A DNA stretch of 64,000 nt, from the sequence record NZ_CP143948.1; one strand, given 5' to 3'. Position 1 is the first letter of the stretch. Each line of letters starts with the position of its first letter. This document shows positions 124-18,105 of the stretch, one piece after another. The translations under genes were made by a program, and so were the position numbers. Source of the stretch: a plasmid. The notes under the pieces were generated by a model. The model had not been told where the DNA came from. It saw nothing but the letters and a program-made list of their open reading frames with translations, and did not search any database.

Positions 124-510
124 TTAAGCCTGCCCGTGGGGAGGCTTAGTTGTGATGCAATCTTTTACAAAATCTTCATAAGATGAATATAATTGAAAGA
201 TTGCCATATTCTTTGATTCTAGTGCTCTTTCTGAACTCCAATAAATAATTGAAATTCCATTATTCTGATAATATAGACATAAATAATCATCATCTAAAAT
301 AGCAAACGGAATGACATCATAATCAAATAAATTTTCCTGTTCTTTATATACTTCTAACATTTCGTCCATTGGAATAACTACAAAGTTTTCCGTTACACCA
401 TCAATTAATATATCCAGTATCCTTTGGGTTGCAATGATTGATTTTATTTCTTTAGGAATAATTCTATTCAGAGCTATTTCAATTGCATATTTCATTTCAA
501 TTACCTCCAA
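124..510 (-). CDS. SMI1/KNR4 (SUKH-1)-like immunity protein, last gene of the orphan toxin/immunity array
   Basis: 128-aa acidic cytoplasmic protein whose profile (…YDVIPFAILDDDYLCLY…IIYWS…) resembles SUKH/Knr4 immunity proteins. It overlaps the upstream toxin-fragment ORF by 14 nt. Confidence 0.45.
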   Translation of the reverse strand: MEVIEMKYAIEIALNRIIPKEIKSIIATQRILDILIDGVTENFVVIPMDEMLEVYKEQENLFDYDVIPFAILDDDYLCLYYQNNGISIIYWSSERALESKNMAIFQLYSSYEDFVKDCITTKPPHGQA

Positions 511-808
511 CCAACGGAAATTGGCTCATTCTAATGGTCTTCTTACCTTGCGTATTTAATGGAATAAACACTCTGTGTGTACCAGTTGGTGTATCACTCG
601 TACTAATATTAAAAAGGTACTCTTTCTTGTATATCATTACATTTTGATCTTTATTATAAATTACTTCATCCAGCTTCATAATAGTATCTTCACACAATTT
701 TCCAACATTAACAGCCTTTCCATATTGAGTTTTTTTAGGTGTAGATACAGTATCAGGATCATACATGTGTTTTCGTGAATGAATTGAAATGTAATCCGAA
801 GCATCCAA
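497..808 (-). CDS. orphan polymorphic-toxin C-terminal fragment, N-terminally truncated
   Basis: 103-aa ORF with no secretion domain, immediately upstream of and overlapping a SUKH-like immunity gene. This pairing is the typical orphan toxin-CT/immunity arrangement. Confidence 0.3.
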   Translation of the reverse strand: MDASDYISIHSRKHMYDPDTVSTPKKTQYGKAVNVGKLCEDTIMKLDEVIYNKDQNVMIYKKEYLFNISTSDTPTGTHRVFIPLNTQGKKTIRMSQFPLVGGN

Positions 809-863
809 TCCCCCATTTTCTTTAAAAAACTCTGTATTTTCTATTGACTTCCCATAGCTGGTC

Positions 864-890
864 TTGACATAAACTCTTTACCCTTATAAT
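864..890 (+). promoter_or_regulatory. sigma-A-like promoter (TTGACA-15nt-TATAAT) inside a 1-kb ORF-free spacer
   Basis: TTGACA at 864-869 and TATAAT at 885-890. The spacer is short and there is no downstream ORF of at least 60 aa. Confidence 0.2.
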
Positions 891-1886: not shown

Positions 1887-2504
1887 CTACTTTTTTAAAT
1901 TAGAAAGCATTTTCTCTGCTTTATCCATTTCGCCTAATAAAGGATTCATATAATCACTAAACGCATCTAAATAAGCTCTACACCCACCACTAATCATAAT
2001 TTTACTAATATCTTCATTACTTGATATAATTTCTTCAGCTTTCATATATCTATCATATAATGTTTTTAGAATAGGTCTGTTAGGCTCAAGTATTATACGT
2101 TGTTCCAACAATTCAATTACTTTTCTAACCTGTTTTTTTATTTCAATTACATTTTCATCCATAGCTGGTCTCCCCACATCTTCTACACTGTCTTCTGTTG
2201 TTTTTCTTACTACTTCAACATCAGACTTTACCGTCTTATTTCGTATCCTTAATATCCCATTATAATCTATCTTATTCGACTGAATAAGTTCTTCTATCTT
2301 CCGCACTGCTCTAAGTTCTGCCTCTATCATTCCCGCAGTACTTCCACTTTCCAGAAAATGCAGATACACCTCTGCTTCTTTTGCCGATACCAAATCTGTT
2401 AAATTTGAATAATTCCCTTCCTCTATCGTCTGACCAATCCTCTTAAGCTCATCATTATTCAGTGTCCTAGTCCCTATCTCTATCCCCTCTGCATTTTTAA
2501 GCAA
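1887..2504 (-). CDS. orphan LXG-toxin C-terminal cassette that retains a divergent recombination handle
   Basis: The N-terminus LKNAEGIEIGTRTLNNDELKRIG matches LFKNADGIEIGSKTLSDAEVKKIG of the full-length toxin. The frame stays open upstream (…SISGNKLLLKNAEG). There is no start context and no LXG domain. Confidence 0.45.
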   Translation of the reverse strand: MLKNAEGIEIGTRTLNNDELKRIGQTIEEGNYSNLTDLVSAKEAEVYLHFLESGSTAGMIEAELRAVRKIEELIQSNKIDYNGILRIRNKTVKSDVEVVRKTTEDSVEDVGRPAMDENVIEIKKQVRKVIELLEQRIILEPNRPILKTLYDRYMKAEEIISSNEDISKIMISGGCRAYLDAFSDYMNPLLGEMDKAEKMLSNLKK

Positions 2505-2534
2505 CAGCTTATTCCCGGAAATACTTACCGTACA
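2461..2534. repeat. divergent third copy (~75% identity) of the toxin recombination handle
   Basis: ccctatctctatcccctctgcatttttaagcaacagcttattcccggaaatacttaccgt resembles the sequence at 3906-4063 and 5641-5798. Confidence 0.5.
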
Positions 2535-2577
2535 TGATTCATTAGCATTAATAGAAATCTATCTTCTTTGCCATCTC

Positions 2578-3054
2578 CTATTCAATAATATTAAAGTCGT
2601 ACTTCTTGCAATAGTAATTATTAAAATTTTCAATATTTTTCCATGGATTCTTTTTTGTCATTCCATTCTTATATGTAACACTTTCCTGCAATTGTTCCTT
2701 TTTTTCATTTAGTGCTGTTCTTATCTTCTCTGCAATTATTTTTCTATCTAATGTAAAAGTCGCTTTATTTCTTTCTTCCTGAAAAATACAAGCATCAAAG
2801 TATAACACTGCTATATAAACATCACCGGCATCTCCTAATAATAATTTTTCAAGTCCTGTTGTAAAAATCTTTTCAATATTTTCAATCTTTTTAATCTGCT
2901 TATAAAAACACTCTACTAACACAGATGTGATATCTGTTGGAAAAATATCTGGTGAAAATTCTGACACTATAACTTCATATTCTTTTTCTCCACGTAATAA
3001 CTGTAAAACCTCATTTTTTTCAATTGCAGTATTAATTAAAACATCATAGTTCAT
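2578..3054 (-). CDS. putative immunity protein (orphan cassette)
   Basis: 158-aa cytoplasmic acidic protein inside the cassette array. Its start overlaps the stop of the next gene by 4 nt. Confidence 0.35.
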   Translation of the reverse strand: MNYDVLINTAIEKNEVLQLLRGEKEYEVIVSEFSPDIFPTDITSVLVECFYKQIKKIENIEKIFTTGLEKLLLGDAGDVYIAVLYFDACIFQEERNKATFTLDRKIIAEKIRTALNEKKEQLQESVTYKNGMTKKNPWKNIENFNNYYCKKYDFNIIE

Positions 3055-3527
3055 AATTTTCCTTTTTTTATTTGTGAAATCGCTCCTAATACATGATTCA
3101 TTAGCATTAATAAAAATCTATCTTCTTTACTATCCCCTTCTAATTCCTTAAAATAAATACCCTTTTTGGTTTTTAGATACACCCTTACATTTTTGCTTTC
3201 GTAATACTCTATGTTCTCGGTTTTTTCCATACTGCCCAGTACCTGATGGCTACTTATAAGTACAGATTGCATGGCTTTCATTACTTCTGCATTTTTCTCT
3301 AAATCTACCATAACATTTCCGCTCCCATGGTAAATATGCGTATTAAGTCCAAAAACCAGTGCTAACGTTTGTGTTTGAAAACCAATAATATTACTTTTTA
3401 ATGGTATATCAAACACTGCTATATACACCTGCTCATCGTTGTCCAAACTTAAATTCATATCCCGATATGAATATCTTAAAACCCGTTCTCTTAATGTTAA
3501 GTATCTTTCTGAGACCTTGTTTTCCAT
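3051..3527 (-). CDS. putative immunity protein for the 3552-4052 toxin cassette
   Basis: 158-aa ORF directly downstream of a toxin C-terminal module. Its 3' tail sequence (…FLLMLMNHV) recurs at 2535-2577, fused to the toxin handle. Confidence 0.4.
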   Translation of the reverse strand: MENKVSERYLTLRERVLRYSYRDMNLSLDNDEQVYIAVFDIPLKSNIIGFQTQTLALVFGLNTHIYHGSGNVMVDLEKNAEVMKAMQSVLISSHQVLGSMEKTENIEYYESKNVRVYLKTKKGIYFKELEGDSKEDRFLLMLMNHVLGAISQIKKGKL

Positions 3528-3551: not shown

Positions 3552-4052
3552 TTATTGACTTCTTTTTACTCTTTTTATTCTTTTTACTCCTTGCTTATTC
3601 TTAATATAAACTTTATCATCCTTGTATATATACAAATCAAAGTCATTTTCTCTTAATACTTCTTTTAATAAACAAATAACCTCATGTATATTATCTTGAC
3701 TTAAACCACTTTCGTATTTTTTTATTCTACTTAAAGGAGTCGAAGCCTTTTCTTTATCCTCTATGGTAACATTAAATGTTCGCATTTCATTTTCTATAGT
3801 AATAATATAATTTAATGGAACATACTCATAAGATAAAATAAAACTTCCCATTTCCGTTCTGGTATTTTTTTCTATCTCCTTTTCAACAATCTTAATTTCA
3901 TCATCGCTCAGCGTCTTCGACCCAATCTCTATCCCATCTGCATTTTTAAACAGCAATTTATTTCCCGAAATACTTACCGTGATTCCTGCTGCAAGACTCA
4001 GCATCATTGTTATAGGCACCGGCCAGTCAAAGGTTTCTCCCAGTGCTCCCAC
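3552..4052 (-). CDS. orphan LXG-toxin C-terminal cassette (handle plus alternative ~115-aa toxin domain)
   Basis: The first 48 aa (GALGETFDWPVPITMMLSLAAGITVSISGNKLLFKNADGIEIGSKTLSD) are identical to residues of the 598-aa toxin. The C-terminus is different and basic. Confidence 0.55.
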   Translation of the reverse strand: MGALGETFDWPVPITMMLSLAAGITVSISGNKLLFKNADGIEIGSKTLSDDEIKIVEKEIEKNTRTEMGSFILSYEYVPLNYIITIENEMRTFNVTIEDKEKASTPLSRIKKYESGLSQDNIHEVICLLKEVLRENDFDLYIYKDDKVYIKNKQGVKRIKRVKRSQ

Positions 4053-4063
4053 ATCACAGGTTG
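3906..4063. repeat. 158-nt near-identical recombination handle (copy 1, in the orphan cassette)
   Basis: Nearly base-for-base identical to 5641-5798 inside the full-length toxin gene. Confidence 0.85.
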
Positions 4064-4335
4064 CATTTCCTAATATCCATAAAACTATATCCTGTCTATA
4101 GTTCTATCTTCTCTTTTTCCTCTATAATCTCCACGTCTTGCTTAAGGAGTTTTTCACAAAATAATATTCTTCATTTTTTCTACATTAGCTTTAATGTTTT
4201 TTATAATTCCATACGTTCTACACCTATATAACTCTCACCGTAATTTCTATTGCAACTCCAACATTATCGTTATCATTACTGCCCAGTTAGAGGCAAACAT
4301 ATTAACAACATCGTTTTCTTGTATTCATAACATTA

Positions 4336-4905
4336 CTAAAACATATATGCATTTACAATATCATTTTCATCAATACTTAATAGTTTTAACACTTCCTTAT
4401 ACTTATTACAAAAGTCTATAATTTTTTGATAATTTTTACAATAGTTAAAAGCTGCTACAAAGGCTCTACTTAATGACGCTTTTTCAACTATTTTGTTGTC
4501 ATTAAAAATAACATTGGCTTTTTCATCCTCTTTTATAATACATATCTTGTTTATTTGAAAGAAGCCTTCACTAAATATGTTTGTAAATTCATCAAAACAT
4601 TGGTTTACAAATTTTATATCATTTTCATTAACTGCTTTACGCAATTCTCTTACTTTTTCTCGATCTATAATTTTATCATTTAACTTCTTGTAACTTACTA
4701 TTCCAAATATAACTGCCTTTTCATAATTATCCGTTGTATACTTTACTTTTTTGCTACCGCGATGATTTTCATTAACAACATATACATCGTTTTCATTGAC
4801 TATAGAAATATAGTTTTCTAGGTCTACTTTTCCTTTCATCTCTGTAATTATCTTGTTTTCTATTTTTAAATTTTCTTTATTCAATACGTGTTGTGCATTA
4901 CTCAA
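4336..4905 (-). CDS. cognate immunity protein of the LXG toxin
   Basis: 189-aa cytoplasmic protein whose start overlaps the toxin stop by 8 nt, indicating translational coupling. Confidence 0.5.
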   Translation of the reverse strand: MSNAQHVLNKENLKIENKIITEMKGKVDLENYISIVNENDVYVVNENHRGSKKVKYTTDNYEKAVIFGIVSYKKLNDKIIDREKVRELRKAVNENDIKFVNQCFDEFTNIFSEGFFQINKICIIKEDEKANVIFNDNKIVEKASLSRAFVAAFNYCKNYQKIIDFCNKYKEVLKLLSIDENDIVNAYMF

Positions 4906-6694
4906 TTACAATCTCTCCTTTATTTACCAACTCTGTGACATCTTCTATTATACCTGTTTCTTCCAACTCTTTTATAGTATACTTTGATCCATCTGGCTTA
5001 TAAACAACATACTGTTGTGCTCCTCCCTCACTTCCAAACCAAGGTGCAGCTTTTCCAGTTGTAAATTCATAATCTTCTACTAATTGATAATAATGAATTT
5101 CTGCCCCTTCACTATGAGGTGCTAATGCCCTTGATTCAAACGAATCTACTGAGTTTCCTAAAAATTCTCCGTTATTAGCTCCATATCTCTTAAATAGTGT
5201 ATCAGTGGGTATAACCTTTTTACACTTACTTCCTTCCTTAAAACCATCATTTGGTGGCCAATGAATTTCACCTGTTTTCTGATTATAATACTTAGGATTA
5301 TCATAAATTTCTTTATATTTTATATACAATTCATCACTCGGTGTAAATTTCCATCCTTGAATCTTTTTCCTATCCTCACTACTAATCGAATTAACAATTT
5401 TATCCCATGTACTTTTTCCAATAAGTTTTAGTCTCTCATCCTCTGTTAGCTGTTCCCCTATTTTCCTAAGCATTACTCTTTCTTCTTCAGACAATGTTGA
5501 AACATCCCGTAATCGTAATGCATTAAATTCTTCCAACGTTACTCCCTTGTTTTTTAATATATTATTAAGGTCTTCGCTAACAAAATTTATATCTAGTCCT
5601 TCATCCAACACATCCCCGATTTTTTTAACCTCAGCATCACTCAGCGTCTTCGACCCAATCTCTATCCCATCTGCATTTTTAAATAACAACTTATTTCCCG
5701 AAATACTTACCGTGATTCCTGCTGCAAGACTCAGCATCATTGTTATAGGCACCGGCCAGTCAAAGGTTTCTCCCAGTGCTCCCACACCACAGGCTGCTGT
5801 ATTTCCCGCAAAGTCTATCAGGGCTGTTTTTCCAAATGCCTTAAGTCCTTCTTTTAATCCCATTTCCGAGAACTTTGTTGCTGCAATGGCGCCTCCAAGC
5901 GTAACCAAATCCACCATTGCAAAGACCACCTTAAGTCCACGTTCCATGTCTGTCAGGTCTTCTCCGGTTATCAAATCTTCTCCGGTACATGCCTCTATGA
6001 CAGGTTTGATAATTGTGATATCCAATACGGACGAAACAAAGTTTAAAAATGGGTTACTGCTGTCATGGGTAAATTCTCCCTGCCTATAAAACTGCTCCAA
6101 AAATTCCTGTTGGGTAAGATTATTGTCTTCTCCCAAAGCTCCAGATGCTTTCATTGCCTCATACTGTGCTGCAAAGATACTTGCAAAATCTTCTACACTT
6201 CCATTGGTATATGCCATATGAAGCCCATTTCCATCCGCCTTTCCGTCAGAAGTTCCAATAAAATCTGCAAAAGTCAGCTTTGCTTTTTCCTGTTCTACCA
6301 TGGTTCCGGCATATCCCATTCCGCCGGTTATATAATTATTTTCTGTCAGTCCCAGTGTATTATCTACCTCAAAGTCTTCCAGATGGATTCGGCTGATTGT
6401 TTCTGTAGCATTTTTCTTGAAATCTTTCTTTAAAGGCTGATCCAGCTTATCATCCACGTAACAATTTAAGACATCAATATAACGGTGAAGGGTTCCATGC
6501 CCCTCTAAAAGCCTGTCAATATCCTTTTCCCTAGATGTATAGTCAATTCCCAGGTCAATTTCATCTAAAATTGTATCACAGGTCTGCAGTGCCTCGTCCA
6601 CATCCATCATTGTATCATACACATACATACAATTTAAATAGCTTACACCTTTTTCACTCCAATCCATGTATGCTTTTTTTATTTCTTCTTCCAT
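4898..6694 (-). CDS. T7SS LXG-family polymorphic toxin with a putative TNT-like NAD+ glycohydrolase C-terminal domain
   Basis: 598 aa with no signal peptide and a helical N-terminal domain. It is preceded by two small WXG100-like Lap genes. The C-terminus (…LFKRYGANNGEFLG…APWFGSEGGAQQYVV) resembles TNT/DUF4237 motifs. An immunity gene overlaps its stop. Confidence 0.55.
   Translation of the reverse strand: MEEEIKKAYMDWSEKGVSYLNCMYVYDTMMDVDEALQTCDTILDEIDLGIDYTSREKDIDRLLEGHGTLHRYIDVLNCYVDDKLDQPLKKDFKKNATETISRIHLEDFEVDNTLGLTENNYITGGMGYAGTMVEQEKAKLTFADFIGTSDGKADGNGLHMAYTNGSVEDFASIFAAQYEAMKASGALGEDNNLTQQEFLEQFYRQGEFTHDSSNPFLNFVSSVLDITIIKPVIEACTGEDLITGEDLTDMERGLKVVFAMVDLVTLGGAIAATKFSEMGLKEGLKAFGKTALIDFAGNTAACGVGALGETFDWPVPITMMLSLAAGITVSISGNKLLFKNADGIEIGSKTLSDAEVKKIGDVLDEGLDINFVSEDLNNILKNKGVTLEEFNALRLRDVSTLSEEERVMLRKIGEQLTEDERLKLIGKSTWDKIVNSISSEDRKKIQGWKFTPSDELYIKYKEIYDNPKYYNQKTGEIHWPPNDGFKEGSKCKKVIPTDTLFKRYGANNGEFLGNSVDSFESRALAPHSEGAEIHYYQLVEDYEFTTGKAAPWFGSEGGAQQYVVYKPDGSKYTIKELEETGIIEDVTELVNKGEIVIE
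5641..5798. repeat. 158-nt recombination handle (copy 2, inside the full-length toxin gene)
   Basis: Near-identical to 3906-4063. It encodes GALGETFDWPVPITMMLSLAAGITVSISGNKLLFKNADGIEIGSKTLSD. Confidence 0.85.
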
Positions 6695-6699: not shown

Positions 6700-7047
6700 T
6701 TATTCATTTCCTCCAATTTGTCCAATGACCCATTCCACAACCTGCTGTTCATTATAATACATAGTATTATAAGCATTTTGAATGTACGTTCCTGCCGCCT
6801 GATACAAAAATGTCATTTTCTGCATATTACTGGCTAGGGATTTAAAAAATGCAAGCATCTCCTCTCTGGCCTCCCCCTGATATGTATCCTCTGATTCTAT
6901 ATTTTGTACACACTGTTCACTATAGGTATATGCCTCCAAAATCTTTGCCTGGATATTTCCCAATTCACTTATATAATCCAAAACACCGGCACCTATTTTT
7001 ATTTCTTCTGAGGATCCGCTGCAGGCCGTATCTACGCTACTACGCAT
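6700..7047 (-). CDS. LXG-associated small helical protein (LapA2/YwqI-like, WXG100-like)
   Basis: 115 aa, helical, immediately upstream of the LXG toxin gene with a 6-nt gap. Confidence 0.45.
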   Translation of the reverse strand: MRSSVDTACSGSSEEIKIGAGVLDYISELGNIQAKILEAYTYSEQCVQNIESEDTYQGEAREEMLAFFKSLASNMQKMTFLYQAAGTYIQNAYNTMYYNEQQVVEWVIGQIGGNE

Positions 7048-7681
7048 AATTTTTTACCTCCTCATCAATTGCCAGAAGTCTCAGTAATTCTCTTCTTACT
7101 TGTACTGCACCCACTTCTCTTTTTATCTGCCGATTCAGGTCATACTCAAATATCTGATTATTCTTCCAATAATAAAGCCATTCTTTTGTTAATGCATTAT
7201 CCTGAAATTCTCCTATCATGATATTCTCTTTGCAGTCTTTTACTTCTCTTAAAAAAGAATCAATATCTTGCAGCTGTAAAAGCTCCTTTTCTGATACTGT
7301 TCCAGTCTGTAATACCGGATATATTTTCAATAATAAATATAAGACAGCGACTCTCGGCAGCCGTAACATCTCATATTCTCTATTTTTCAAGGGAATGATC
7401 ACAATTGCCTCTCTTTGTTCCAAAAGTGCAATATGTAAATAATTTATAATAACATGATTCCGGCTTTCCTTATAACATTCCAATGCTCTTGCCGGCAAAA
7501 ATCCCATTTTCGTCAATTCCGTTTCAGATGCAAGCACACCCTTTTCTATCAGTCCATTTATAGTTTTTTTAACTTCCTCTTCATGACCTTTCTGTGGTCG
7601 GAACTTTAACGGAATTCCAAATACCTCATTTCCTTTTGTAATACTATTAAAAAACACCATTTCATGCTCCGTAAATCTCAT
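7040..7681 (-). CDS. T7SS effector accessory protein (possible chaperone or targeting factor)
   Basis: 213 aa, cytoplasmic. It lies between the two Lap-like genes and overlaps both neighbours. Confidence 0.3.
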   Translation of the reverse strand: MRFTEHEMVFFNSITKGNEVFGIPLKFRPQKGHEEEVKKTINGLIEKGVLASETELTKMGFLPARALECYKESRNHVIINYLHIALLEQREAIVIIPLKNREYEMLRLPRVAVLYLLLKIYPVLQTGTVSEKELLQLQDIDSFLREVKDCKENIMIGEFQDNALTKEWLYYWKNNQIFEYDLNRQIKREVGAVQVRRELLRLLAIDEEVKNYA

Positions 7682-8001
7682 TACATGTCCTCCATATCCT
7701 TATACTCCTGAAATTCATCATAAAAATCATCTACTCTGTCACCATGAGATTTTAATGCATCGATTGCCTGCTGCACCGGATTGTCACCGTTAGCCTTTGA
7801 AAAACTTTTATGATATTGTTGCATCAGCCCCATATATGCCATAAAAGTAGTTTTCTCTTTTCCCTTCCACAATTCATCACTCTCAATACGCAACATAAGC
7901 CGGGTCAATTCATCGTAGGAATCATCTATTCTTTCCTTTATTGCTTTCATGTTAGTCAGCAGTTCATTCATATTGCTTCCTGACATTTTAAAATCCTGCA
8001 T
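7681..8001 (-). CDS. LXG-associated small helical protein (LapA1/YwqH-like)
   Basis: 106 aa, helical, acidic C-terminus. Its stop shares a base with the start of the next gene. Confidence 0.45.
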   Translation of the reverse strand: MQDFKMSGSNMNELLTNMKAIKERIDDSYDELTRLMLRIESDELWKGKEKTTFMAYMGLMQQYHKSFSKANGDNPVQQAIDALKSHGDRVDDFYDEFQEYKDMEDM

Positions 8002-8033
8002 ACATTCTCCTTTCCCATAACTAACTAATCAAC

Positions 8034-8501
8034 CTATGACGCTTCTCTTTTTCGCCTTGCCTCTTCCTCCGCAGCTTCTCTTCTTAATCTCTCTTCCTCT
8101 TCATAATATTGCTGCTGATATATCTTCATTTCATCATCTTCACGTTTTGCTTCGTCACACCAGTAATTATATTCATCTCTTGCAAATTCCAATTTTGATT
8201 TTACTTCTGCAATTATTTCTTTAAAATCAGCCCCCAGTTTTTCTACTGCCTCGCGATTTTCACTTTCCTTTGTTACAAAAGTGTCGCTGAGTTTTCCCTG
8301 AGCAGAATCCGGATTCATCTCCATTGTATTGTAATCTGTTGCTAATTGAGCCATAACATCACTTAAATTGTCTGTTTTCTTTAACTCTTTTTCCAAATTC
8401 CTTACTACTTTTTTATATTTATCTCTCTGAGATTCTGCATAGGTTTTCTTTCCAAAAATATCTTCTATTATATATTTTAATCGTTCTAACAGACTTGCCA
8501 T
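8034..8501 (-). CDS. coiled-coil T7SS-associated protein (DUF5082-like). True start is at the internal ATG.
   Basis: GAGGAG RBS 7 nt before ATG(8499-8501). The ORF-track N-terminal extension MIAYANKFAELRPLFVK is read-through of an esxA remnant. The C-terminus is E/R-rich. Confidence 0.4.
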   Translation of the reverse strand: MASLLERLKYIIEDIFGKKTYAESQRDKYKKVVRNLEKELKKTDNLSDVMAQLATDYNTMEMNPDSAQGKLSDTFVTKESENREAVEKLGADFKEIIAEVKSKLEFARDEYNYWCDEAKREDDEMKIYQQQYYEEEERLRREAAEEEARRKREAS

Positions 8502-8520
8502 ATTGCTTCTCCTCTTGTTC

Positions 8521-8579
8521 TGATAAACTTTTACAAATAAAGGTCTGAGCTCTGCAAACTTGTTGGCATAAGCAATCAT
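8521..8579 (-). pseudogene. esxA remnant (internal deletion that removed the WXG-motif region)
   Basis: Nucleotides 8540-8570 match esxA 10305-10335 (…YANKFAELRP…). Nucleotides 8570-8600 match the lipoprotein-stop/esxA 5'UTR at 10527-10562. The junction lies at a gcata microhomology. Confidence 0.5.
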
Positions 8580-8586
8580 ACCGTAT

Positions 8587-9483
8587 TTAATCTGCAGCCT
8601 GTGAGCTTTCCGCTTTTTTACTGCCTGGGAAAACTATCATCTGCTCCAGTTCTTCTTGGGGAACCGCCTGGTATTTTTTAAGGTAATCCACTGTATTGAC
8701 TGTGGTTTTCTCTGTTCCCGGAGTGTCATATACAACTGTCTTGTTCTCTGTGAATTTATTGTCCGGAATAATATCATACTCTATCAAATCCAGATTATCT
8801 CTTACGCAGAATGTCATGTATGTTTTTCCATCCAGCTTTATCCTCTCAAATGTTCCAAATGATACTATATCTTGACTTTCCTCTTTCTCTGTCTGATTCC
8901 ATATCTCACTTTCCTCCTCTCTTGTATAAAGAGTTCCCTTTGAATATGAATACAGTGTCTCCAGCCGGGCATTATTTCCCGAATCATCTGTAGTGATTTC
9001 CCTCTGTACATACCTTTCCTCAGCTGTATACTTTTCATATCCATACTTGGTATCATGCCACTTCCAACTTGCACCATATGCGCCTATATCATATGTTGAA
9101 TAATCCACTTTATTATGTATTATGTCACCAAGTCTGGTCTCCATAAGGAAATCATCAGGATTATCATAGCCTTTTAGTTTCTCTCCATCATATGAGATAA
9201 TATTAACTTTTAAATCCTCTGTTATTTCTACAGGTGTATTTGATTCGGCAATACACATCCTATATATCATTATCTTTCCTTCCTCTTTAATCCTCTGATC
9301 TATCATCTCTGATATCGTGATTTCACCTTCCGGCTCTGTGGTCACAAGCTCTGCTGCCGTGCAATCTGTTTCTGTTGCCTGAGCTGCTGATGTGTCATTT
9401 TCCTTCTTATCCTTTTTTTCACATGCTGTCACCATACATAACATACATGCTGCTATCATAAGAACTGATATTGCTTTCTTCAT
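8587..9483 (-). CDS. secreted lipoprotein, paralog B (~88% aa identity to 10546-11445)
   Basis: Signal peptide with lipobox MVTAC and an AGGAGG RBS. It is near-identical to copy A along its whole length. Confidence 0.6.
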   Translation of the reverse strand: MKKAISVLMIAACMLCMVTACEKKDKKENDTSAAQATETDCTAAELVTTEPEGEITISEMIDQRIKEEGKIMIYRMCIAESNTPVEITEDLKVNIISYDGEKLKGYDNPDDFLMETRLGDIIHNKVDYSTYDIGAYGASWKWHDTKYGYEKYTAEERYVQREITTDDSGNNARLETLYSYSKGTLYTREEESEIWNQTEKEESQDIVSFGTFERIKLDGKTYMTFCVRDNLDLIEYDIIPDNKFTENKTVVYDTPGTEKTTVNTVDYLKKYQAVPQEELEQMIVFPGSKKAESSQAAD

Positions 9484-9619
9484 AATAAATTTTCCTCCTG
9501 TATGCGTTGCATTCATGCCTATTTATTGTTATCTCAATTTTCCAAAATGTACTTCATATATTCCTTTACTCTGTTACACAAAGCCCTAAACAATCTCATC
9601 ATGATGTAATTTCTCCGGA

Positions 9620-10036
9620 TTATTTTTTCAATTTAACGTCACCTAATATCTCATTTAATCTATAATCATGTCCTGACTGAAAATTAATAACTACATCCTT
9701 GAATGGGTCCGAACTGTCCTTTTCGTCATTATCGTTCTGTATTTGTTCCCATAATTTTCCAATCGCTTCATCAGAGGCTATATACTGCTCTAGCGAATTA
9801 TTCAATACCTCATATGTATTATTAAATAAATCCTCCACGGCAAATGAAATCGTTGTCAGAAAAGTATTTATGCTCTCTATTTCCGGCACGCTGTCTCCTT
9901 TGCTGTGTATCTGGGTTCCCTGTATTTCAACTATCTTATTAGTCAGCTCATTTCCTGATTTTAAACTCTCCATTCTCTCCAGCGCATAGCTAAATTCCTT
10001 AAGTCTTATTTCTTTACTGTCTCCGCTTTTTATCAT
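9620..10036 (-). CDS. hypothetical acidic protein downstream of esxA
   Basis: 138 aa with no TM. Position only. Confidence 0.35.
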   Translation of the reverse strand: MIKSGDSKEIRLKEFSYALERMESLKSGNELTNKIVEIQGTQIHSKGDSVPEIESINTFLTTISFAVEDLFNNTYEVLNNSLEQYIASDEAIGKLWEQIQNDNDEKDSSDPFKDVVINFQSGHDYRLNEILGDVKLKK

Positions 10037-10149
10037 GACTTTTCTGTCCTCCTGTTAATGTATAAAATTATGGTCTTATTTTAAAAGCAGCTCTGCTGCT
10101 CTTGAAATAAAGCCACAATACAAATACAATACAAATACAATACAATTCC

Positions 10150-10181
10150 ACACCACAGCCTGTGGTGTGGAATCCGGCATT
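10150..10181 (-). terminator. 12-bp stem-loop downstream of esxA, followed by T-rich 11-mer tandem repeats
   Basis: ttccacaccaca-gcc-tgtggtgtggaa, then (caatacaaata)x3 on the transcribed strand. Confidence 0.4.
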
Positions 10182-10190
10182 GAATGAATT

Positions 10191-10487
10191 TTACATGCTG
10201 AACTGATTTGCTATCTGTGTATCGGTTGACTCTACTGCCTCTGCAGTCTTGTCAAGTGCCGCTGCGATATCATCGATCAGCTCTTTTCCTTTTACAAATG
10301 AAGGTCTGAGCTCTGCAAACTTGTTGGCATATGCCTCTGATGCTGAGCCCTCCCACTCTGTGAGCAGGGTTTCAAGTAATCTGTCCATCTTGTCGATTAC
10401 GCTCTGTACATTATCTGCTTCTGTCCTGTACTCTCCTGCCCTTTCTCTCATTGTGTCAGGTGTCATTCTGATCTGTCCTGCTGCCAT
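10191..10487 (-). CDS. esxA: WXG100 family T7SS substrate EsxA
   Basis: 98 aa with AAGGAGG RBS. W-x-G motif LTEWEGSASEAY. Helical hairpin profile. Confidence 0.85.
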   Translation of the reverse strand: MAAGQIRMTPDTMRERAGEYRTEADNVQSVIDKMDRLLETLLTEWEGSASEAYANKFAELRPSFVKGKELIDDIAAALDKTAEAVESTDTQIANQFSM

Positions 10488-10545
10488 TTTCATGTCCTCC
10501 TTAAAATAATTTTTATATATAATTGCATAAGCAATCATACCGTAT

Positions 10546-11445
10546 TTAATCTGCAGCCTGTGAGCTTTCCGCTTTTTCGCTGCCTGGGAAAATTATCATC
10601 TGCTCCAGCTCTTCTTTGGGAACCGCCTGGTATTTTTTGAGGTAATCCACTGTATTGACTGTGGTTCCCTCTGATCCCGGAGTGTCATATACAACTGTCT
10701 TGTTCTCTGTGAATTTATTGTCCGGAATTATATAATACTTTATCAGATTCAAATTATCTCTTACGCAGAATGTCATGTATGTTTTTCCATCCAGCTTTAT
10801 CCTCTCAAATGTTCCAAATGATACTATATCTAGACTGTCCTCTTTCTCTGTCTGATTCCATACCTCACTTCCCTCCTCTCTTGTATAAAGAGTTCCCTTT
10901 GAATACGAATACAGTGTCTCCATCTGGGTATTATTTCCCGAATCATCTGTAGTGATTTCGCGCTGTACATAGCCTTCTTCTTCCACATACTTTTCGTCTC
11001 CACCAGACACATAACGATGTCGCTTCCAGTTTCCACCATATGCGCCTATATTATATGTTGAATAATCCACTTTATTATGTATTATGTCACCAAGTCTGGT
11101 CTCCCCTCTGCGATTAGAGCTATTTCCATAATCGATAAGTTCTTTCCCATCATACGATATAATATTTACGTTTAAATCCTCTGTTATTTCCAAAGGAGTC
11201 TTTGACGGACCAAAATGCATCCTATATATCATTATCTTCCCTTCCTCTTTAATCCTCTGATCTATCATCTCTGATATCGTGATTTCACCTTCCGGCTCTG
11301 TGGTCACACGCTCTGCTGCCGTGCAATCTGTTTCTGTTGCCTGTGCTGCTGATGTGTCATTTTCCTTCTTATCCTTTTTTTCACATGCTGTCACCATACA
11401 TAACATACATGCTGCTATCATAAGAACTGATATTGCTTTCTTCAT
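10546..11445 (-). CDS. secreted lipoprotein, paralog A
   Basis: Lipobox MVTAC. 299 aa, Tyr/Thr-rich. Confidence 0.6.
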   Translation of the reverse strand: MKKAISVLMIAACMLCMVTACEKKDKKENDTSAAQATETDCTAAERVTTEPEGEITISEMIDQRIKEEGKIMIYRMHFGPSKTPLEITEDLNVNIISYDGKELIDYGNSSNRRGETRLGDIIHNKVDYSTYNIGAYGGNWKRHRYVSGGDEKYVEEEGYVQREITTDDSGNNTQMETLYSYSKGTLYTREEGSEVWNQTEKEDSLDIVSFGTFERIKLDGKTYMTFCVRDNLNLIKYYIIPDNKFTENKTVVYDTPGSEGTTVNTVDYLKKYQAVPKEELEQMIIFPGSEKAESSQAAD

Positions 11446-11496
11446 AATAAATTTTCCTTTCTGTATGCGTTGCATTCATGCCTATTTATTGTTATC

Positions 11497-13218
11497 TCAA
11501 TTTTCTATAACGTAATCAATATAGTTTGACACTCTGTTGCACAAAGCCTTATAGTCTTCGTCATCCTCTCTCTGATTTTTATCACCTGCTCCCCTGGCAT
11601 AGTCCTCCAAGTCATCAATACTTACCTGCTGTTTCGGCTCTGCCTGTGCATTATATGCATCCACCATCTTCGTCACTTTCTCCACATCCATCGTGATATT
11701 ATCACAGATATAGGTGTCACCTACCCTGGTTATCTCCATATCCATGCCGAAATAATTGGCATCTTCTATCATGTCCTGACATGTAAAGTCTGTTTCTGTC
11801 AGTCTGTCTTTTGCTTCATCAATTTCTGCATTATTTTGTACATTTTCATTATTTTCATCATATGCTGCATTTAAGTCATTCAAATAATTTATTGCTGCGT
11901 TAGCCTTGTTAATCTTATCTCCTACGGTTTCATTTATTATTACCGCTGAAAGGCCTATAGCTTCATCAATAATCTTACCTTTTAAAGTATTACTTGTTAC
12001 ATCAAAAAATACTCTGCATTCAGTCTTTTCCTCTTCCTTTTGATTTTCAAGATTCTGCTTTGTATTCTCAATCATGCCGTGTGGAAGTACATGGCTTACA
12101 ATCTGATTATCTACCATTCCATACGCATCTATCTGATTGACCTTCTCATTTTCTTTTCCTACTTTTTCATTAATAGTTCCATTTGTTACCTTGACGTTAT
12201 AATATTTGTCCAATATCTCCCTGTCATTGCTGTCTGTAATATTGCATATGCTTACATCAAACGGCAGCTCTTTCAGGCATACGGATACGGTCACATTTTT
12301 CTCTTTATCGGAATGTATTGTAAATCCATCGTTTTTTCCATTATATGCAACTCCTATTGTCGGGTAGCTATCAACCATTGCTTTAAACAGGGATGACACT
12401 CTGTACTGCTCTTTCATCTCTTCAAGCGCTTCATCACTAATCTCGTCGTTTCTGTATGCACATTTTTCGCTGTAATAGTCAATTATATCCATACTTGTCT
12501 TATATATATCCACCGCCCTCTTAAATGTATTCGTGACACTCACACTGTAATACTTAGGGTCTTCCAGATCTGCATTATCTATCCACTCATCATCCTTGGC
12601 GTTTCCATAACCTGCGCGCAGCATGTTCTCTATATTTGCTATGGTTTCTTCCTCATCATCTGTGGACAGCTTTGGAAATACTGATACAAGTGCCTGCAGC
12701 TCTGCATCTGGTACAAATTCCTTCCGCATCTCATAGTTTATTTCGTCCCAGTTCATAACTGTCTTTCCATTAGAATCCACTGAATAGAATCGCTCTTTAT
12801 AATACTCTGTTATCTTCGAGTCCACTTTTGCCTGTATATTACCAGCTTTTGTTTTCAATGTCTGGCAATCCATCGTATATATATTCTCAACGGATCTTAC
12901 ATTAATAAGAGCTGCCAGTTCTTTAATTGCAGTGCTGAATCTTTCCAAGTCCATATATTCGTCCCGAAACCTGGCTGCATATAGATCATCCACTCCATTT
13001 ACATTATCAAACATCCTTCTTACACTATTGCTTGCCTCTTCATTTTGTCTCTGATATTCTGTTGCCGCGTTTCTTAGCTGTGATTCATAATCATATTGAA
13101 ATATACCTTTGGTTTCCACTACACCGTAGGTTTTGTTTATTTCCTCCCACTGTTCTTCTCCTCCCATATAGCTTTGTATGTCATCGTATGCTTCCTGCGT
13201 AAAATCCTTAAATTTCAT
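11497..13218 (-). CDS. LXG-like T7SS effector (573 aa) with an unassigned C-terminal domain
   Basis: No signal peptide. The N-terminus is helical and loosely similar to that of the 598-aa toxin. It is preceded by a YwqH/YwqI-like small-gene pair. Confidence 0.4.
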   Translation of the reverse strand: MKFKDFTQEAYDDIQSYMGGEEQWEEINKTYGVVETKGIFQYDYESQLRNAATEYQRQNEEASNSVRRMFDNVNGVDDLYAARFRDEYMDLERFSTAIKELAALINVRSVENIYTMDCQTLKTKAGNIQAKVDSKITEYYKERFYSVDSNGKTVMNWDEINYEMRKEFVPDAELQALVSVFPKLSTDDEEETIANIENMLRAGYGNAKDDEWIDNADLEDPKYYSVSVTNTFKRAVDIYKTSMDIIDYYSEKCAYRNDEISDEALEEMKEQYRVSSLFKAMVDSYPTIGVAYNGKNDGFTIHSDKEKNVTVSVCLKELPFDVSICNITDSNDREILDKYYNVKVTNGTINEKVGKENEKVNQIDAYGMVDNQIVSHVLPHGMIENTKQNLENQKEEEKTECRVFFDVTSNTLKGKIIDEAIGLSAVIINETVGDKINKANAAINYLNDLNAAYDENNENVQNNAEIDEAKDRLTETDFTCQDMIEDANYFGMDMEITRVGDTYICDNITMDVEKVTKMVDAYNAQAEPKQQVSIDDLEDYARGAGDKNQREDDEDYKALCNRVSNYIDYVIEN

Positions 13219-13236
13219 TATGCGTCACCCCTCCTT

Positions 13237-13548
13237 CTAATACGCTTCATATGTTCCTATACCATATATATCTCCATCTGCCTCATCTACATCTCTCACA
13301 AATTCATTAAGTTTTTTTGACATTTCCCTGAAGGATTCTCCCAGTATACTCTGATATGTATGAACAGCATCCTCGTACACTTCCAGCTTATCGTGCAATT
13401 CACCGCTTATAACCGCATTTGTGTTTATAATATCAAGTATCATCTGATATTCGTTCATCTGTCTATCTGCAATCTTTGCAAGTTCTGAGTATAAACGCAC
13501 AAGTTCTGTAAATTCCTCCTGCTCAAACATTAAATTGTACTGTCCCAT
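13237..13548 (-). CDS. YwqI-like small WXG100-like protein
   Basis: 103 aa, helical. Its start is adjacent to the stop of the upstream gene. Confidence 0.4.
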   Translation of the reverse strand: MGQYNLMFEQEEFTELVRLYSELAKIADRQMNEYQMILDIINTNAVISGELHDKLEVYEDAVHTYQSILGESFREMSKKLNEFVRDVDEADGDIYGIGTYEAY

Positions 13549-13976
13549 TACTTACTCTCCATTCTTCTTTTTTTTATTCTCAGCTGCTCTATATTGTCCT
13601 CATATGTACACAGCTGCTGATTTATTTCATATATCCTGTCATTTCTGCTCCTGATTGCATTCTCTACATCTCTCAGCATTGAATCTATAGCATTCATCGC
13701 ATTGGCTACATACGATTTTCCGTCGTTTAATGAATTAATACTCTTAAGTCTGCCCTTCAGATTTGTTATATTACGACTGCTATATCTGTCCATGCCGGCT
13801 ATATTATCAACTCTGCATTTAAACCGGTTTTGCGCCTGCCATTTATATTCCTTTATTTTCAATGCTTCCTGATCCAAAGCATCTATTTCATTAAGCAGCC
13901 TGTTTTTCTCAAGCTGCAGATTTTCTACATTTGCCCGGTACCTTGATATTCTGCGACTTAATTCTTTTAGTTCCAT
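13548..13976 (-). CDS. YwqH/DUF5082-like coiled-coil protein
   Basis: 142 aa with a coiled-coil heptad pattern. It is the first gene of the effector operon. Confidence 0.4.
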   Translation of the reverse strand: MELKELSRRISRYRANVENLQLEKNRLLNEIDALDQEALKIKEYKWQAQNRFKCRVDNIAGMDRYSSRNITNLKGRLKSINSLNDGKSYVANAMNAIDSMLRDVENAIRSRNDRIYEINQQLCTYEDNIEQLRIKKRRMESK

Positions 13977-14011
13977 AATAGTATTATTCTCCTCACCTTT
14001 TATATTTAAAG

Positions 14012-15052: not shown

Positions 15053-15069
15053 TCGCTATTTTCCATTCC

Positions 15070-15489
15070 TTATGAGATACATTCTGTCGTATGTAAAAAT
15101 TCTATTTTCTTTGTTACTTCGAACCTGATATTGGTTTTTTGCAGCTTTTCGGTTATATCTTCCAATACTGTGGTTTCATCCTGCAATACTTCTGTCGGTG
15201 CATCCAGCACAGTAGTTTCATCTATATTTTGTGTATATCCCGGCTTTTTCTTATTCTCCCCTGCCAGGTTATATGACGGTGCTATCGGACCGGACGATGT
15301 TATGTCAATATGTCCCGCTGTCTGCTTTTGTACAATTGCTGCAATTCCTTTCCGGGCAGATTTTCCGGTAAGTGCACCTATGACCTTAGGTATTTCAAGC
15401 ACTATAAGTATGACTATTGAAGCTATAAGCATTATGGCAAATGCGGTGAAGGATACGTAAAATATCATCCTGTACTGATTATAAGTCAT
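15070..15489 (-). CDS. small N-terminally membrane-anchored protein with ETTVL(D/E) repeats
   Basis: One TM helix at residues 8-30. Overlaps the kinase gene by 11 nt. Confidence 0.4.
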   Translation of the reverse strand: MTYNQYRMIFYVSFTAFAIMLIASIVILIVLEIPKVIGALTGKSARKGIAAIVQKQTAGHIDITSSGPIAPSYNLAGENKKKPGYTQNIDETTVLDAPTEVLQDETTVLEDITEKLQKTNIRFEVTKKIEFLHTTECIS

Positions 15490-17176: not shown

Positions 17177-17185
17177 CTGTTCCTC

Positions 17186-17968: not shown

Positions 17969-18105
17969 TCCTCCCAGAATTCAAAATCTTCGTTTCCAAG
18001 TCTGCCTTGAAGGGCATGCGCTTTCGCGCATGCCACAGACATTGTTGTTTTTCCCACACCACCACATGGTAATGTAAATACATAGGTAATTATCTTATTG
18101 CTCAT
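17965..18105 (-). pseudogene. 46-aa ORF carrying a ParA/MinD-type Walker A motif (gene fragment or micro-ORF)
   Basis: MSNKIITYVFTLPCGGVGKTTMSVACAKAHALQGR… It overlaps the stop of the surface-protein gene and the start of the phosphatase gene. Confidence 0.3.

Follow-up and report, generated by a model that had tools for sequence, protein, structure and literature searches.

Displaced pairs of toxin tips and immunity genes lie in tandem downstream of the main gene in loci for contact-dependent inhibition (CDI). Each pair opens with a piece of the conserved region from just before the variable tip, and full-length genes in other strains carry these tips. Orphan modules of the cdiA-CT/cdiI type in these loci were reportedly described by Poole et al. 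in 2011. In Salmonella, rhs-main and rhs-orphan are 95% identical over 522 bp, and Koskiniemi et al. (2014) proposed that homologous recombination there accounts for evolved lines deploying the orphan toxin (PMC3967940). [quoted passage not shown] For the EsaD/YeeF family of toxins, PMC10653861 mentions NAD+ glycohydrolase variants.

The window that we analyzed is a stretch of 64,000 nt from sequence record NZ_CP143948.1, in which a full-length toxin gene and a downstream orphan module share a short segment. Agathobacter rectalis, the species to which this toxin belongs, ranks with the most abundant commensals of the human gut, and how its strains compete is poorly understood; our literature search found no paper on its type VII secretion system (T7SS) toxins. 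We postulate, with a probability of roughly 0.85 for the reading as a whole, that the shared segment is the end of a conserved toxin trunk, that it serves as a homology arm for tip exchange and has no sequence-specific activity, and that its second copy survives on a displaced module. The features on which this reading draws are collected in Table 1.

Table 1. Coordinates (window positions) of the toxin gene, its neighbors, the copies of the shared segment, and the displaced remnants
Feature	Position	Strand	Basis or remark
Full-length polymorphic T7SS toxin gene, 598 aa	4898..6694	-	Pfam, PDB sequence matches, Foldseek
Presumed immunity gene of the TNT domain, 189 aa	4336..4905	-	Overlaps toxin stop
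Export-partner genes upstream of toxin	6700..8579	-	Pfam, gene order
115-aa helical protein gene	6700..7047	-	Sub-threshold WXG100 match
EsaE-type chaperone gene (DUF5081/PF16887)	7040..7681	-	Pfam E = 6.6e-16
106-aa WXG100-like protein gene	7681..8001	-	Sub-threshold WXG100 match
155/181-aa protein gene	8034..8579	-	Position upstream of toxin
Copy A of shared segment	5625..5797	-	Within full-length toxin gene, codons 300-357: AACGVGALGETFDWPVPITMMLSLAAGITVSISGNKLLFKNADGIEIGSKTLSDAEVK
Copy B of shared segment	3892..4064	-	5' end of orphan module 1
Copy C of shared segment, partial and diverged	2415..2531	-	5' end of orphan module 2, ORF 1887..2504
Orphan 1 ORF, 166 aa	3552..4052	-	Deletion chimera, scar between 3852 and 3851
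Two consecutive 158-aa genes	3051..3527 and 2578..3054 (span 2578..3527)	-	Candidate immunity genes
3'-end remnant of a UCP033725 (PF27768)-type gene	4097..4235	-	Adjoins copy B, upstream in gene orientation
Orphan 2 ORF, 205 aa	1887..2504	-	Linker and PF27174 "YeeD"-type module
49-nt remnant	2531..2579	-	Matches 3090-3138, close to the 3' end of gene 3051..3527, at 92% identity
Orphan 3	124..868	-	Toxin C-terminal fragment and SUKH-1/SMI1_KNR4 immunity-type gene (124..510)

Copies A and B form a direct repeat at an offset of 1,733 nt, with 164 of 173 ungapped positions identical (94.8%); with one 3-nt indel, a BLAST alignment of the two reaches about 182 nt at 93.4%. Their longest perfect tract is 96 nt (3958-4053 = 5691-5786), and in our reading of the alignments five of the nine mismatches are synonymous and four nonsynonymous. 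A 71-nt piece of the segment occurs exactly twice in the window versus 0 times in 100 shuffles. The first-pass annotation had reported a near-identical repeat here, and the repeat exists, but the pairing that it gave (5641-5798 with 3906-4063, an offset of 1,735) is only 25.9% identical without gaps, which is random. The coordinates were 2 nt out of register, and MAFFT recovers the repeat by a 2-nt shift; at an offset of 1,733, the orphan interval 3906-4063 matches at 152 of 158 positions (96.2%). The hydrophobic peptide quoted at the time was correct, being toxin aa 300-357 (the hydrophobic stretch itself spans aa 315-333, Kyte-Doolittle about 1.6), and the segment is indeed common to the toxin and the downstream module. 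What had been overlooked were copy C, which begins only at TVSISGNKLL and retains 83% nucleotide identity over 89 nt and 67% amino acid identity over 39 residues, a fourth copy, which the identical sibling contig L002 shows just past the window's left edge, and the chimeric nature of the 166-aa ORF.

On either flank of the A/B repeat, identity per 100 nt drops to 17 to 41%, the level of chance, in agreement with the earlier statement that the flanks are unrelated; the similarity is thus not that of a whole-gene duplication. Direct repeats in a repetitive locus with true duplications (8566-9588 vs 10525-11551) could in principle come from the simple duplication of a gene, from a site-specific switch like a shufflon, or from an artifact of assembly, but we consider this group of explanations hardly credible. 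Duplication is at odds with a similarity limited to about 180 nt between random flanks. A switch is opposed by repeats that are direct and not inverted and by the called genes of the locus in sibling loci, which include no recombinase; the only recombinase nearby is a transposase fragment in L020, a different genome, at another position. As for an artifact, the independently assembled L002 has the same arrangement base for base (100% over the 7,095 nt compared), and all ten sibling loci, from different samples, have both copies and the same nine differences between them.

The resident toxin consists of a helical N-terminal region, a PT-TG domain at aa 226-269 (PF14449; 28.9 bits against a cutoff of 23.5, and 31.4 bits on a sub-fragment), the shared segment at aa 300-357, a linker, and a C-terminal TNT domain at aa 495-586 (PF14021; Pfam E = 4.3e-18), with PT-TG placed centrally between the helical N terminus and the toxin domain. 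The tip is predicted to be a TNT-type NAD+ glycohydrolase domain, with PDB sequence matches to TNT-family NADases and Foldseek matches to TNT 4qlp, Tse6, and Tne2. We presume, from its position, that the 189-aa gene is the cognate immunity gene; its product had no family match in Pfam or NCBIfam.

The first-pass annotation had spoken of an LXG trunk, a membership that we reject. LXG (PF04740) gave no Pfam match with the whole toxin at E ≤ 0.01 or with aa 1-220 at E ≤ 1, an NCBIfam search of the toxin gave no LXG match, and Foldseek against the PDB returned no LXG structure; Pfam gives PT-TG and TNT, and the gene order is of the EsaD/YeeF type (PMC10653861). Divergent LXG/WXG-like folds are reported to exist (PMC13483458), and the N terminus of this toxin could still have such a fold. 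An AlphaFold2 model built on a 33-sequence alignment (pLDDT 60, pTM 0.26) is confident only for a helical hairpin at aa 22-101 and otherwise poor, and the shared segment within it (pLDDT 50 to 67) is too low for fold inference.

The genes immediately upstream follow the order esxC-esxB-esaE-esxD-esaD, as compared with PMC10653861; the PF16887 family is EsaE (PMC13483458), and the partner identities are read only from weak WXG100 matches and gene order. A WXG100 gene at 10191..10538 (E = 2e-19) points to a T7SSb context, and sibling loci encode YukD and a 1,388-aa FtsK/SpoIIIE EssC downstream. We classify the protein as a putative EsaD/YeeF-like PT-TG type T7SSb toxin, with predicted partner binding and secretion.

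Among 33 diverse family members, the conserved stretch extends through "...LSLAAGxTVSxxGxKxxFKxxxG" and goes no further, its family-wide limit being about aa 345-365; distant homologs align only to query aa ~338-365. The conserved trunk closes with copy A, where the family consensus ends, and the earlier placement of the segment directly before the variable toxin region was therefore sound. Alleles of 573, 576/577, 598, and 600/601 aa are 99 to 100% identical over aa 1-365, and the trunk recurs at 95 to 97% identity in a 688-aa, a 613-aa, and several partial alleles with EndoU and other tips. Alleles with different tips all part ways between aa ~350 and 366. In public A. rectalis assemblies, the same trunk carries at least seven different tips, and the switch points of all of them lie at the segment's 3' end, in a stretch of about 50 nt. 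No invariant motif marks this boundary, which spans about 15 codons (aa ~350-366). Some strains have the roughly 1.7 kb between copies A and B, comprising the TNT tip and the 189-aa gene, and others lack it. At the level of sequence, these comparisons show that the segment marks the border between the trunk and the variable C terminus of a predicted polymorphic T7SSb toxin.

We also considered whether the segment is a recombination site selected at the nucleotide level. Trunk nt 901-990 are nearly invariant in the eight of eight intact trunk alleles sampled (pi = 0.003), but another trunk block, nt 181-270, is just as invariant and the last 80 nt are the most diverse, and this candidate was rejected.

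Orphan 1 lies 846 nt downstream of the toxin gene in the same orientation. It keeps only trunk codons ~298-357 (173 to 182 nt at 93 to 95%), and the sequence upstream of these is unrelated. The first-pass annotation had called it an orphan cassette, but it is not an intact one: in its ORF, the segment leads into about 10 codons from the orphan toxin region, to which the final 99 codons of the following 137-aa gene are joined in frame. A 529-nt deletion removed the toxin domain of orphan 1 along with codons 1-38 of the gene behind it. Two sibling loci (L001 and L004) retain an intact 209-aa toxin fragment together with the 137-aa gene, and the succession of a predicted toxin domain and a putative immunity gene, which orphan 1 lacks in the window, is present in both. 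An RHS protein (P0156) bears this toxin domain too, and the A. rectalis type strain, ATCC 33656, encodes the intact 209-aa orphan 1 as a spare. Both 158-aa genes accompany orphan module 1 in every strain seen; a tandem duplication of these two genes was rejected, with no detectable relation between them (BLASTP E = 0.89). The remnant upstream of copy B is 76 to 88% identical to the 3' ends of UCP033725-type genes in sibling loci.

Could the 166-aa chimera be expressed and under selection as a protein of its own, perhaps a membrane-associated immunity factor, and the identity of the copies a matter of protein-level constraint? The fusion is in frame, the exact protein is found on 481 contigs versus 187 for the intact 209-aa form, and the segment includes the hydrophobic stretch. 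However, an in-frame outcome has a 1-in-3 chance, clonal spread can explain the abundance, the 137-aa protein has lost its N-terminal 38 aa, and the absence of any synonymous change in the core is not expected from protein-level constraint alone. The nominal start of the ORF is GTG, and the AGGA that precedes it by about 15 nt is poorly spaced. A promoter and terminator scan, in which promoter-like sites numbered 34 versus 29.8 ± 5.4 expected, found no promoter-like site upstream of orphan 1 on the coding strand and gave no support to expression of the orphan from a promoter of its own. We regard the selected-protein account as highly improbable. Its more specific form, a membrane-tethered immunity or decoy factor directed against the 512-aa allele of competing A. 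rectalis, strikes us as very unlikely; if it were true, the shared segment would have been co-opted as the N-terminal module of the chimera.

The other displaced modules are similarly eroded. The first 111 aa of orphan 2 are a linker that elsewhere in A. rectalis leads to EndoU, colicin-DNase-type (PF12639), Ntox, and other toxins; here it ends at position 2172 and is followed by the 88-aa PF27174 module, and no toxin domain was recognized in the ORF. Directly adjoining copy C is the 49-nt remnant, which is the scar of an earlier deletion or recombination. Orphan 3 was found without any shared segment, and its fragment at 868-500 is 97% identical to aa 140-262 of protein P0276. In L002, a decayed second toxin gene precedes the UCP033725 array, which directly follows the toxin in strains with 573/576-aa alleles. 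Disarming is systematic among the displaced modules checked for it in this locus: orphans 1 and 2 and the decayed gene of L002, which lies past the window edge, have all three lost the toxin domain and kept their downstream genes.

Direct joints between the trunk and orphan 1 were found in other strains. As a search pattern, we used trunk nt 520-551 together with orphan-1-specific sequence about 530 nt downstream, which matched four metagenome stretches. In L023, L024, and L025, an uninterrupted trunk (98 to 99% identical over 2.6 to 3.9 kb) runs into the orphan 1 module (99.1%), and each has an intact 512-aa ORF that joins trunk aa 1-357 to the orphan 1 toxin domain. This gene holds the primary position of the locus, with the EsaE-type set before it and the 137-, 158-, and 158-aa genes after it; the 189-aa gene is missing from the trunk-CT1 fusion contigs. 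The exact 512-aa protein occurs on 86 contigs of up to 208 kb and belongs to a cluster of 248. The suggestion to look for such fusions in sibling strains was thus borne out in silico. Assemblers can mis-join across repeats, and L023 is chimeric after about 7.6 kb (an unrelated PurM-like gene), while L021 has a trunk-CT1 joint with a 232-nt trunk deletion at 3.2x coverage. We treated L021 and L023 as unreliable on their own, and drew the conclusion from L024, L025, L026, and the number of contigs (86); a misassembly is unlikely because these 86 contigs share an identical 512-aa ORF.

The fused alleles have C at segment position 109 and lack three synonymous changes specific to the orphan copy. 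Because these SNPs differ, the fused alleles are not simple products of the copies in this strain, whether by insertion of the TNT cassette or by deletion between the repeats, and they record old polymorphism rather than a recent event. At segment positions 52 and 109, all four allele combinations occur, a sign of recombination in or near the segment. Since the trunk carries at least seven tips, the 512-aa joint included, cassette exchange at the segment is supported across the species by comparative evidence from public assemblies, most of them metagenomic.

Copy B might instead be no more than debris of a one-off displacement or deletion, with tips varying only through the import of whole trunk-plus-tip units by crossovers elsewhere. 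We judge this somewhat unlikely. The 5' limit of the segment is a deletion scar that varies among strains (518 nt in L019 and L022, about 180 nt here, and 89 nt in orphan 2), which fits debris and also tells against the discrete 158-nt "handle" of the first-pass annotation. The loss of toxin domains from all three modules checked, the lack of an upstream promoter-like site above chance, and the indirect relation of the fused alleles to the copies in this strain point the same way. Against debris alone, at least seven tip types switch within about 50 nt at the segment's 3' end, the lineages of trunk remnants and tips are incongruent, which implies crossovers in or beside the segment, and the experimentally studied Rhs analog is explained by recombination via such a segment (PMC3967940).

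Under the homology-arm reading that we prefer, the segment would be the last ~173 to 182 nt of the conserved trunk of a type VIIb-secretion toxin of A. rectalis. RecA-type homologous recombination may cross over within it, inside one chromosome, between sister chromosomes, or with imported DNA, and would attach another C-terminal toxin to the constant, secretion-competent trunk. We infer both this mechanism and the direction of events, which may be insertion displacing an old tip or deletion between repeats; gene-end remnants directly upstream of copies B and C are a signature of displacement, as is the decayed second toxin gene in front of the UCP033725 array of L002. In this strain, a crossover between copies A and B would delete 1,733 bp, including the TNT domain and its presumed immunity gene, and the product would be a fusion of the trunk to a gene fragment, nontoxic because the toxin domain of orphan 1 has been deleted here. 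With a nontoxic product and the inferred loss of TNT immunity, the segment is unlikely to be useful in this strain, and its downstream module is a fossil. With respect to the minimal homology of RecA, 173 nt with a 96-nt perfect core leads to a low expected frequency of recombination.

The near-identity of the copies had been attributed to recent or ongoing gene conversion, in which the orphan copy would be actively homogenized against the resident trunk. Several observations are compatible with this. The mismatches cluster at the ends, and a 96-nt perfect run has P of about 0.005 if nine mismatches fall at random. The trunk remnant on the orphan 1 toxin resembles the resident trunk in each lineage, including the window, though the toxin module is 98 to 99% identical across lineages; in L019 the remnant has seven lineage-specific variants of L019's own trunk. 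Yet this lineage pattern fits equally well the import of a cassette with a crossover in the segment. The 5% divergence between the copies is ordinary within the species, comparable to the roughly 3.3% by which trunk alleles differ between strains (aligned region including the upstream gene). The perfect core coincides with the near-invariant trunk nt 901-990, and nt 181-270 are equally invariant. The orphan copy has three private synonymous changes, and the identical nine differences in 10 of 10 sibling loci suggest that no conversion is in progress. Conversion is thus not required, and we consider it unlikely.

In public assemblies, a single T7SS toxin trunk has at least seven tips, and the zone where they switch is mapped to about 50 nt. 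The orphan 1 toxin is "live" in certain strains; elsewhere, the type strain included, it is an intact spare, and here a disarmed relic. With these concrete alleles and with primers across the junctions, strain antagonism and the turnover of cassettes could be followed in gut metagenomes.

Conceptually, this locus adds nothing beyond the established orphan model of Rhs, CdiA, and LXG toxins, and tip swapping is well known. As in cdiA-CT/cdiI orphans, the displaced modules downstream start with a fragment of the trunk, and the tip is found on full-length genes in other strains; CdiA has a VENN motif at the boundary, whereas here there is a zone of about 15 codons without an invariant motif. With EsaD/YeeF (PMC10653861), the toxin shares a helical N terminus, a central PT-TG, and a variable C-terminal toxin, as well as a PF16887 chaperone and small helical or WXG100-like partners immediately upstream; its predicted tip, unlike that of EsaD, is not a nuclease, and the passages of PMC10653861 used here do not take up orphan modules with a shared segment. 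The orphans of E. faecalis belong to the same secretion system and likewise have 5' homology to a full-length toxin gene. Their trunks have a recognizable LXG domain, which was not detected here, and the full-length counterparts in our case are of the same species, at 98 to 99% nucleotide identity with the exact junction documented.

A close parallel is with the Rhs locus of Salmonella enterica (PMC3967940). The systems differ in that a T6SS and an Rhs shell there correspond to T7SSb and another protein family here, the homology here is three times shorter, and the orphan in the window is without its toxin domain. Evolved lines were selected and analyzed there, whereas exchange here is inferred from population comparison. 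In both, a truncated C-terminal toxin/immunity module lies behind a full-length toxin gene and keeps a short conserved stretch, 95% identical over 522 bp there and 95% over 173 bp here, and the crossover proposed in Salmonella fuses the trunk to the orphan tip and removes the main tip with its immunity gene, as we propose for the trunk of A. rectalis.

The 598-aa toxin gene and orphan 1, an orphan cassette downstream of it, share a direct repeat, with every gene treated here lying on the minus strand. The first-pass annotation had paired positions 5641-5798 with 3906-4063. The repeat itself stands, but that register does not: its offset of 1735 gives 25.9% ungapped identity, which is chance level, whereas the same orphan interval at an offset of 1733 is identical at 152/158 positions (96.2%), a match that MAFFT also finds after a 2-nt slide. 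The complete ungapped repeat (copies A and B in the table) is identical at 164 of 173 positions; allowing one 3-nt indel, BLAST extends it to ~182 nt at 93.4% identity. Perfect identity extends over at most 96 nt in a row (3958-4053, matching 5691-5786). Within the window a 71-nt piece of the repeat is found exactly twice, whereas none of 100 shuffles contains it, and identity beyond the repeat limits is 17 to 41% per 100 nt. The similarity thus exceeds 80% without being gene-wide, so that the first-pass observation withstands the refuting conditions set for it.

Coordinates of features at the toxin locus
Feature	Position	Strand	Remarks
Toxin ORF, 598 aa	4898..6694	-	Pfam PT-TG at aa 226-269; TNT NAD+ glycohydrolase domain at aa 495-586
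Genes upstream of toxin			115-aa helical gene; DUF5081/PF16887 gene (E=6.6e-16); 106-aa WXG100-like gene; 155/181-aa gene
Copy A	5625-5797	-	within toxin gene
189-aa gene	4336..4905	-	presumed immunity partner by position
Copy B	3892-4064	-	5' end of orphan 1
Orphan 1	3552..4052	-	
Copy C	2415-2531	-	5' end of ORF 1887..2504 (orphan 2); shorter, more diverged third copy
Orphan 3, toxin C-terminal fragment	868-500	-	97% identical to aa 140-262 of database protein P0276; no shared segment, no start
SUKH-1/SMI1_KNR4 gene	124..510	-	follows orphan 3 toxin fragment
Duplicated lipoprotein-like genes, 309 aa	8587..9516; 10546..11475	-	one in each unit of a ~1-kb tandem duplication (8566-9588 vs 10525-11551), 90-95% identical
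WXG100 gene	10191..10538	-	"YANKFAELRP..."; 10289-10334 is repeated at 8528-8573 (46 nt, 96% identical)
ORF at 46-nt repeat	8034..8579	-	repeat at its 5' end; called as 155 or 181 aa depending on strain
FHA/kinase/phosphatase block	14012-23278	-	upstream of toxin region

Copy C is 83% identical over 89 nt, and its peptide (TVSISGNKLLLKNAEGIEIG...) is 67% identical. A fourth copy was found in sibling locus L002, which agrees with the window at 100% of the 7,095 nt compared (subtracting the locus coordinate from 16695 gives the window coordinate). This copy lies ~1.6 kb past the window's left edge, within a decayed second toxin gene (L002 17924-18603) that joins nt 1-172, 405-514 and 773-1096 of the trunk, the conserved N-terminal part of the toxin. 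The decayed gene is followed by the same UCP033725 array that sits directly behind the 573/576-aa alleles of other strains, and both of its internal deletions recur elsewhere (in locus L021 and in P0121, a protein of a 45-member cluster).

The segment encodes toxin aa 300-357, which lie ~30 residues beyond the Pfam match to PT-TG; aa 315-333 within it form a hydrophobic stretch. Among 1.84 billion representative proteins we found 351 relatives. Alignments to the distant ones (30 to 55% identity) end at query aa ~338-365, and the consensus of 33 diverse members reaches "...LSLAAGxTVSxxGxKxxFKxxxG" and then vanishes. The segment therefore forms the last conserved ~55 codons of the trunk, which agrees with its earlier placement just before the variable tip. 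Trunk aa 1-365 are 99 to 100% identical among the 573-, 576/577-, 598- and 600/601-aa alleles, and at 95 to 97% identity the trunk carries 688-aa, 613-aa and several partial alleles with EndoU and other tips. In all alleles compared, divergence sets in between aa ~350 and 366, at "GIEIGSK|ANLL," "KTLSD|DEIKIVEKE," "KTLSD|DDLKIVEQ," "KKIGDVLDE|TT" or "KKIGDVLDE|GLD"; judged from these sequences, the boundary is a ~15-codon zone at the segment's 3' end with no fixed motif. The 598-aa and 600/601-aa alleles have a common linker past the segment and split only at "...KKIQGWK|" (toxin aa ~470, window ~5285), which indicates a second switch point within the C-terminal region, directly before the TNT domain.

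The TNT assignment is backed by PDB sequence matches to NADases, and a structural model of low overall confidence gave Foldseek matches of the predicted tip to TNT, Tse6 and Tne2. No LXG domain was found in the toxin, even when its N-terminal 220 aa were searched at E<=1. The locus matches the gene order esxC-esxB-esaE-esxD-toxin given for EsaD/YeeF-type T7SSb toxins in PMC10653861, which also describes a helical N terminus, a central PT-TG and variable tips including NADases; PF16887 is EsaE (PMC13483458). YukD and a 1388-aa EssC lie farther downstream in sibling contigs, and database protein names identify the organism as Agathobacter rectalis. The block upstream of the toxin region, annotated from sibling loci, comprises an FHA/Yop-YscD_cpl gene, a Ser/Thr kinase, a PP2C phosphatase and a 1727-aa protein with faint Big-domain matches; it may be a regulatory or accessory part of the T7SS locus. 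Locus L009 has a single lipoprotein-gene unit, so copy number differs among strains. The 46-nt repeat of the WXG100 gene looks like a further recombination scar.

Sibling assemblies, in which the first-pass annotation had proposed looking for trunk-orphan fusions, do contain them (L023, L024, L025 and L026). The fusion pattern combined trunk nt 520-551, missing from every orphan remnant seen, with a 27-mer that is specific for the toxin region of orphan 1 and stands 526 to 535 nt farther on. L021 alone had it within the initial set of sibling loci, and a metagenome collection yielded four further stretches. In L023, L024 and L025 the trunk and upstream genes are unbroken, 98 to 99% identical to the window type over 2.6 to 3.9 kb, and the trunk leads directly into an orphan-1 module that is 99.1% identical, with neither the TNT tip nor the 189-aa gene present. 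All three encode an intact ORF of 512 aa, in which the orphan-1 toxin follows trunk aa 1-357; the 106/DUF5081/115-aa genes stand before it and the 137/158/158-aa genes after. The same joint is seen in L026, which comes from an NCBI assembly and in which the window-type array continues for 5.9 kb more at 99.4%. The exact 512-aa protein occurs on 86 contigs (the largest has 208 kb) and belongs to a 248-member cluster, which argues against an assembly artefact. The ~1.7-kb block between the copies (TNT tip plus 189-aa gene) is thus a presence/absence polymorphism in A. rectalis, and the orphan-1 toxin, by its predicted product, is the active tip in other strains. L023 has this toxin twice, joined to the full trunk in one case and to a trunk remnant of 655 nt in the other; its 7600-14239 stretch runs into a PurM-like gene without relation to A. 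rectalis sequence, and the contig is probably chimeric.

In the window orphan 1 is disarmed. Loci L001 and L004 hold a 209-aa orphan-1 fragment and a 137-aa gene; in the window and eight other loci, owing to a 529-nt deletion (scar between 3852 and 3851), the shared segment and 10 further codons read on in frame into the final 99 codons of the 137-aa gene. The chimera is found on 481 contigs and the intact form on 187, strain ATCC 33656 among them; homologues of the intact toxin domain occur in an RHS protein and in numerous small proteins. Since this domain is deleted here, a crossover between copies A and B would delete 1733 bp and give a non-toxic fusion; it would presumably also cost this strain TNT immunity. 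Orphan 2 presents a similar picture. Its residues 1-111 are a linker to which, in other proteins of A. rectalis, EndoU, colicin-DNase-type (PF12639) or Ntox domains are attached; in the window this linker ends at 2172 and gives way to an 88-aa module of PF27174 type, which also occurs elsewhere with unrelated N termini before it. The decayed toxin gene past the window edge likewise has no tip. Orphan 3 is a third orphan that kept its toxin part and lost its 5' homology. Between orphans 2 and 3, ~1 kb (~870-1886) has no ORF of >=50 aa on the coding strand and probably represents decayed coding sequence; at 927-853, 25 residues match database protein P0249.

The near-identity of copies A and B had been attributed to recent or ongoing gene conversion. 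The nine mismatches do gather at the repeat ends (with randomly scattered mismatches, a clean run of 96 nt has P ~0.005), but trunk nt 901-990, holding most of that perfect core, are nearly invariant in all eight intact alleles (pi 0.003), as are nt 181-270, and trunk alleles differ by ~3.3% between strains (aligned region including the upstream gene). Conversion is further favoured by segment positions 52 and 109, at which all four allele combinations are present, and by the divergent L019 lineage, whose orphan's trunk remnant has seven variants in common with its own trunk although its toxin module is 98 to 99% identical to the window's. At some time in the species' history, recombination in or beside the segment clearly did take place. 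In this strain, ongoing conversion is not required: the orphan copy retains three private synonymous changes, and all ten sibling loci have the identical nine differences.

Nor is the segment a discrete 158-nt handle, as first proposed. Copy B is immediately preceded by what is left of the 3' end of a UCP033725-type gene (4097-4235); in the same context, L019 and L022 have a 518-nt trunk remnant (trunk nt 553-1070) ahead of the orphan-1 toxin. The segment is rather the leftover of such a longer remnant, its 5' limit being a scar. Copy C in turn abuts, on its upstream side, 49 nt that survive from the 3' end of a gene resembling 3051..3527. In strains carrying the 573-aa or 576-aa allele, the UCP033725 array comes right behind the toxin and orphans are absent, and 601-aa allele strains have yet another arrangement. 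Together, these remnants and arrangements indicate that the array records successive insertions or displacements and deletions, the direction of which we infer. L019 itself is a second form of the toxin locus, more divergent (87% identity in the trunk) and in a different neighbourhood, with rubrerythrin and Fur upstream, EamA and MatE downstream and no kinase/FHA block. Either this locus is paralogous or it belongs to a related species.

We consider the best-supported reading to be that the segment would act as a homology arm for general recombination, an exchange that would presumably depend on RecA, with the downstream genes as putative immunity genes. The interest of the case is modest and rests on the organism and the clean population-level documentation. 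The arrangement resembles rhs-main and rhs-orphan of Salmonella, in which a conserved stretch with 95% identity over 522 bp is the proposed recombination site creating an expressed chimera (PMC3967940). In its 5' homology to a full-length toxin gene, orphan 1 is also like the T7SS orphans of E. faecalis, whose 5' ends have >75% nucleotide identity to LXG genes (PMC7790226), and the arrangement parallels the cdiA-CT orphans cited in that paper.
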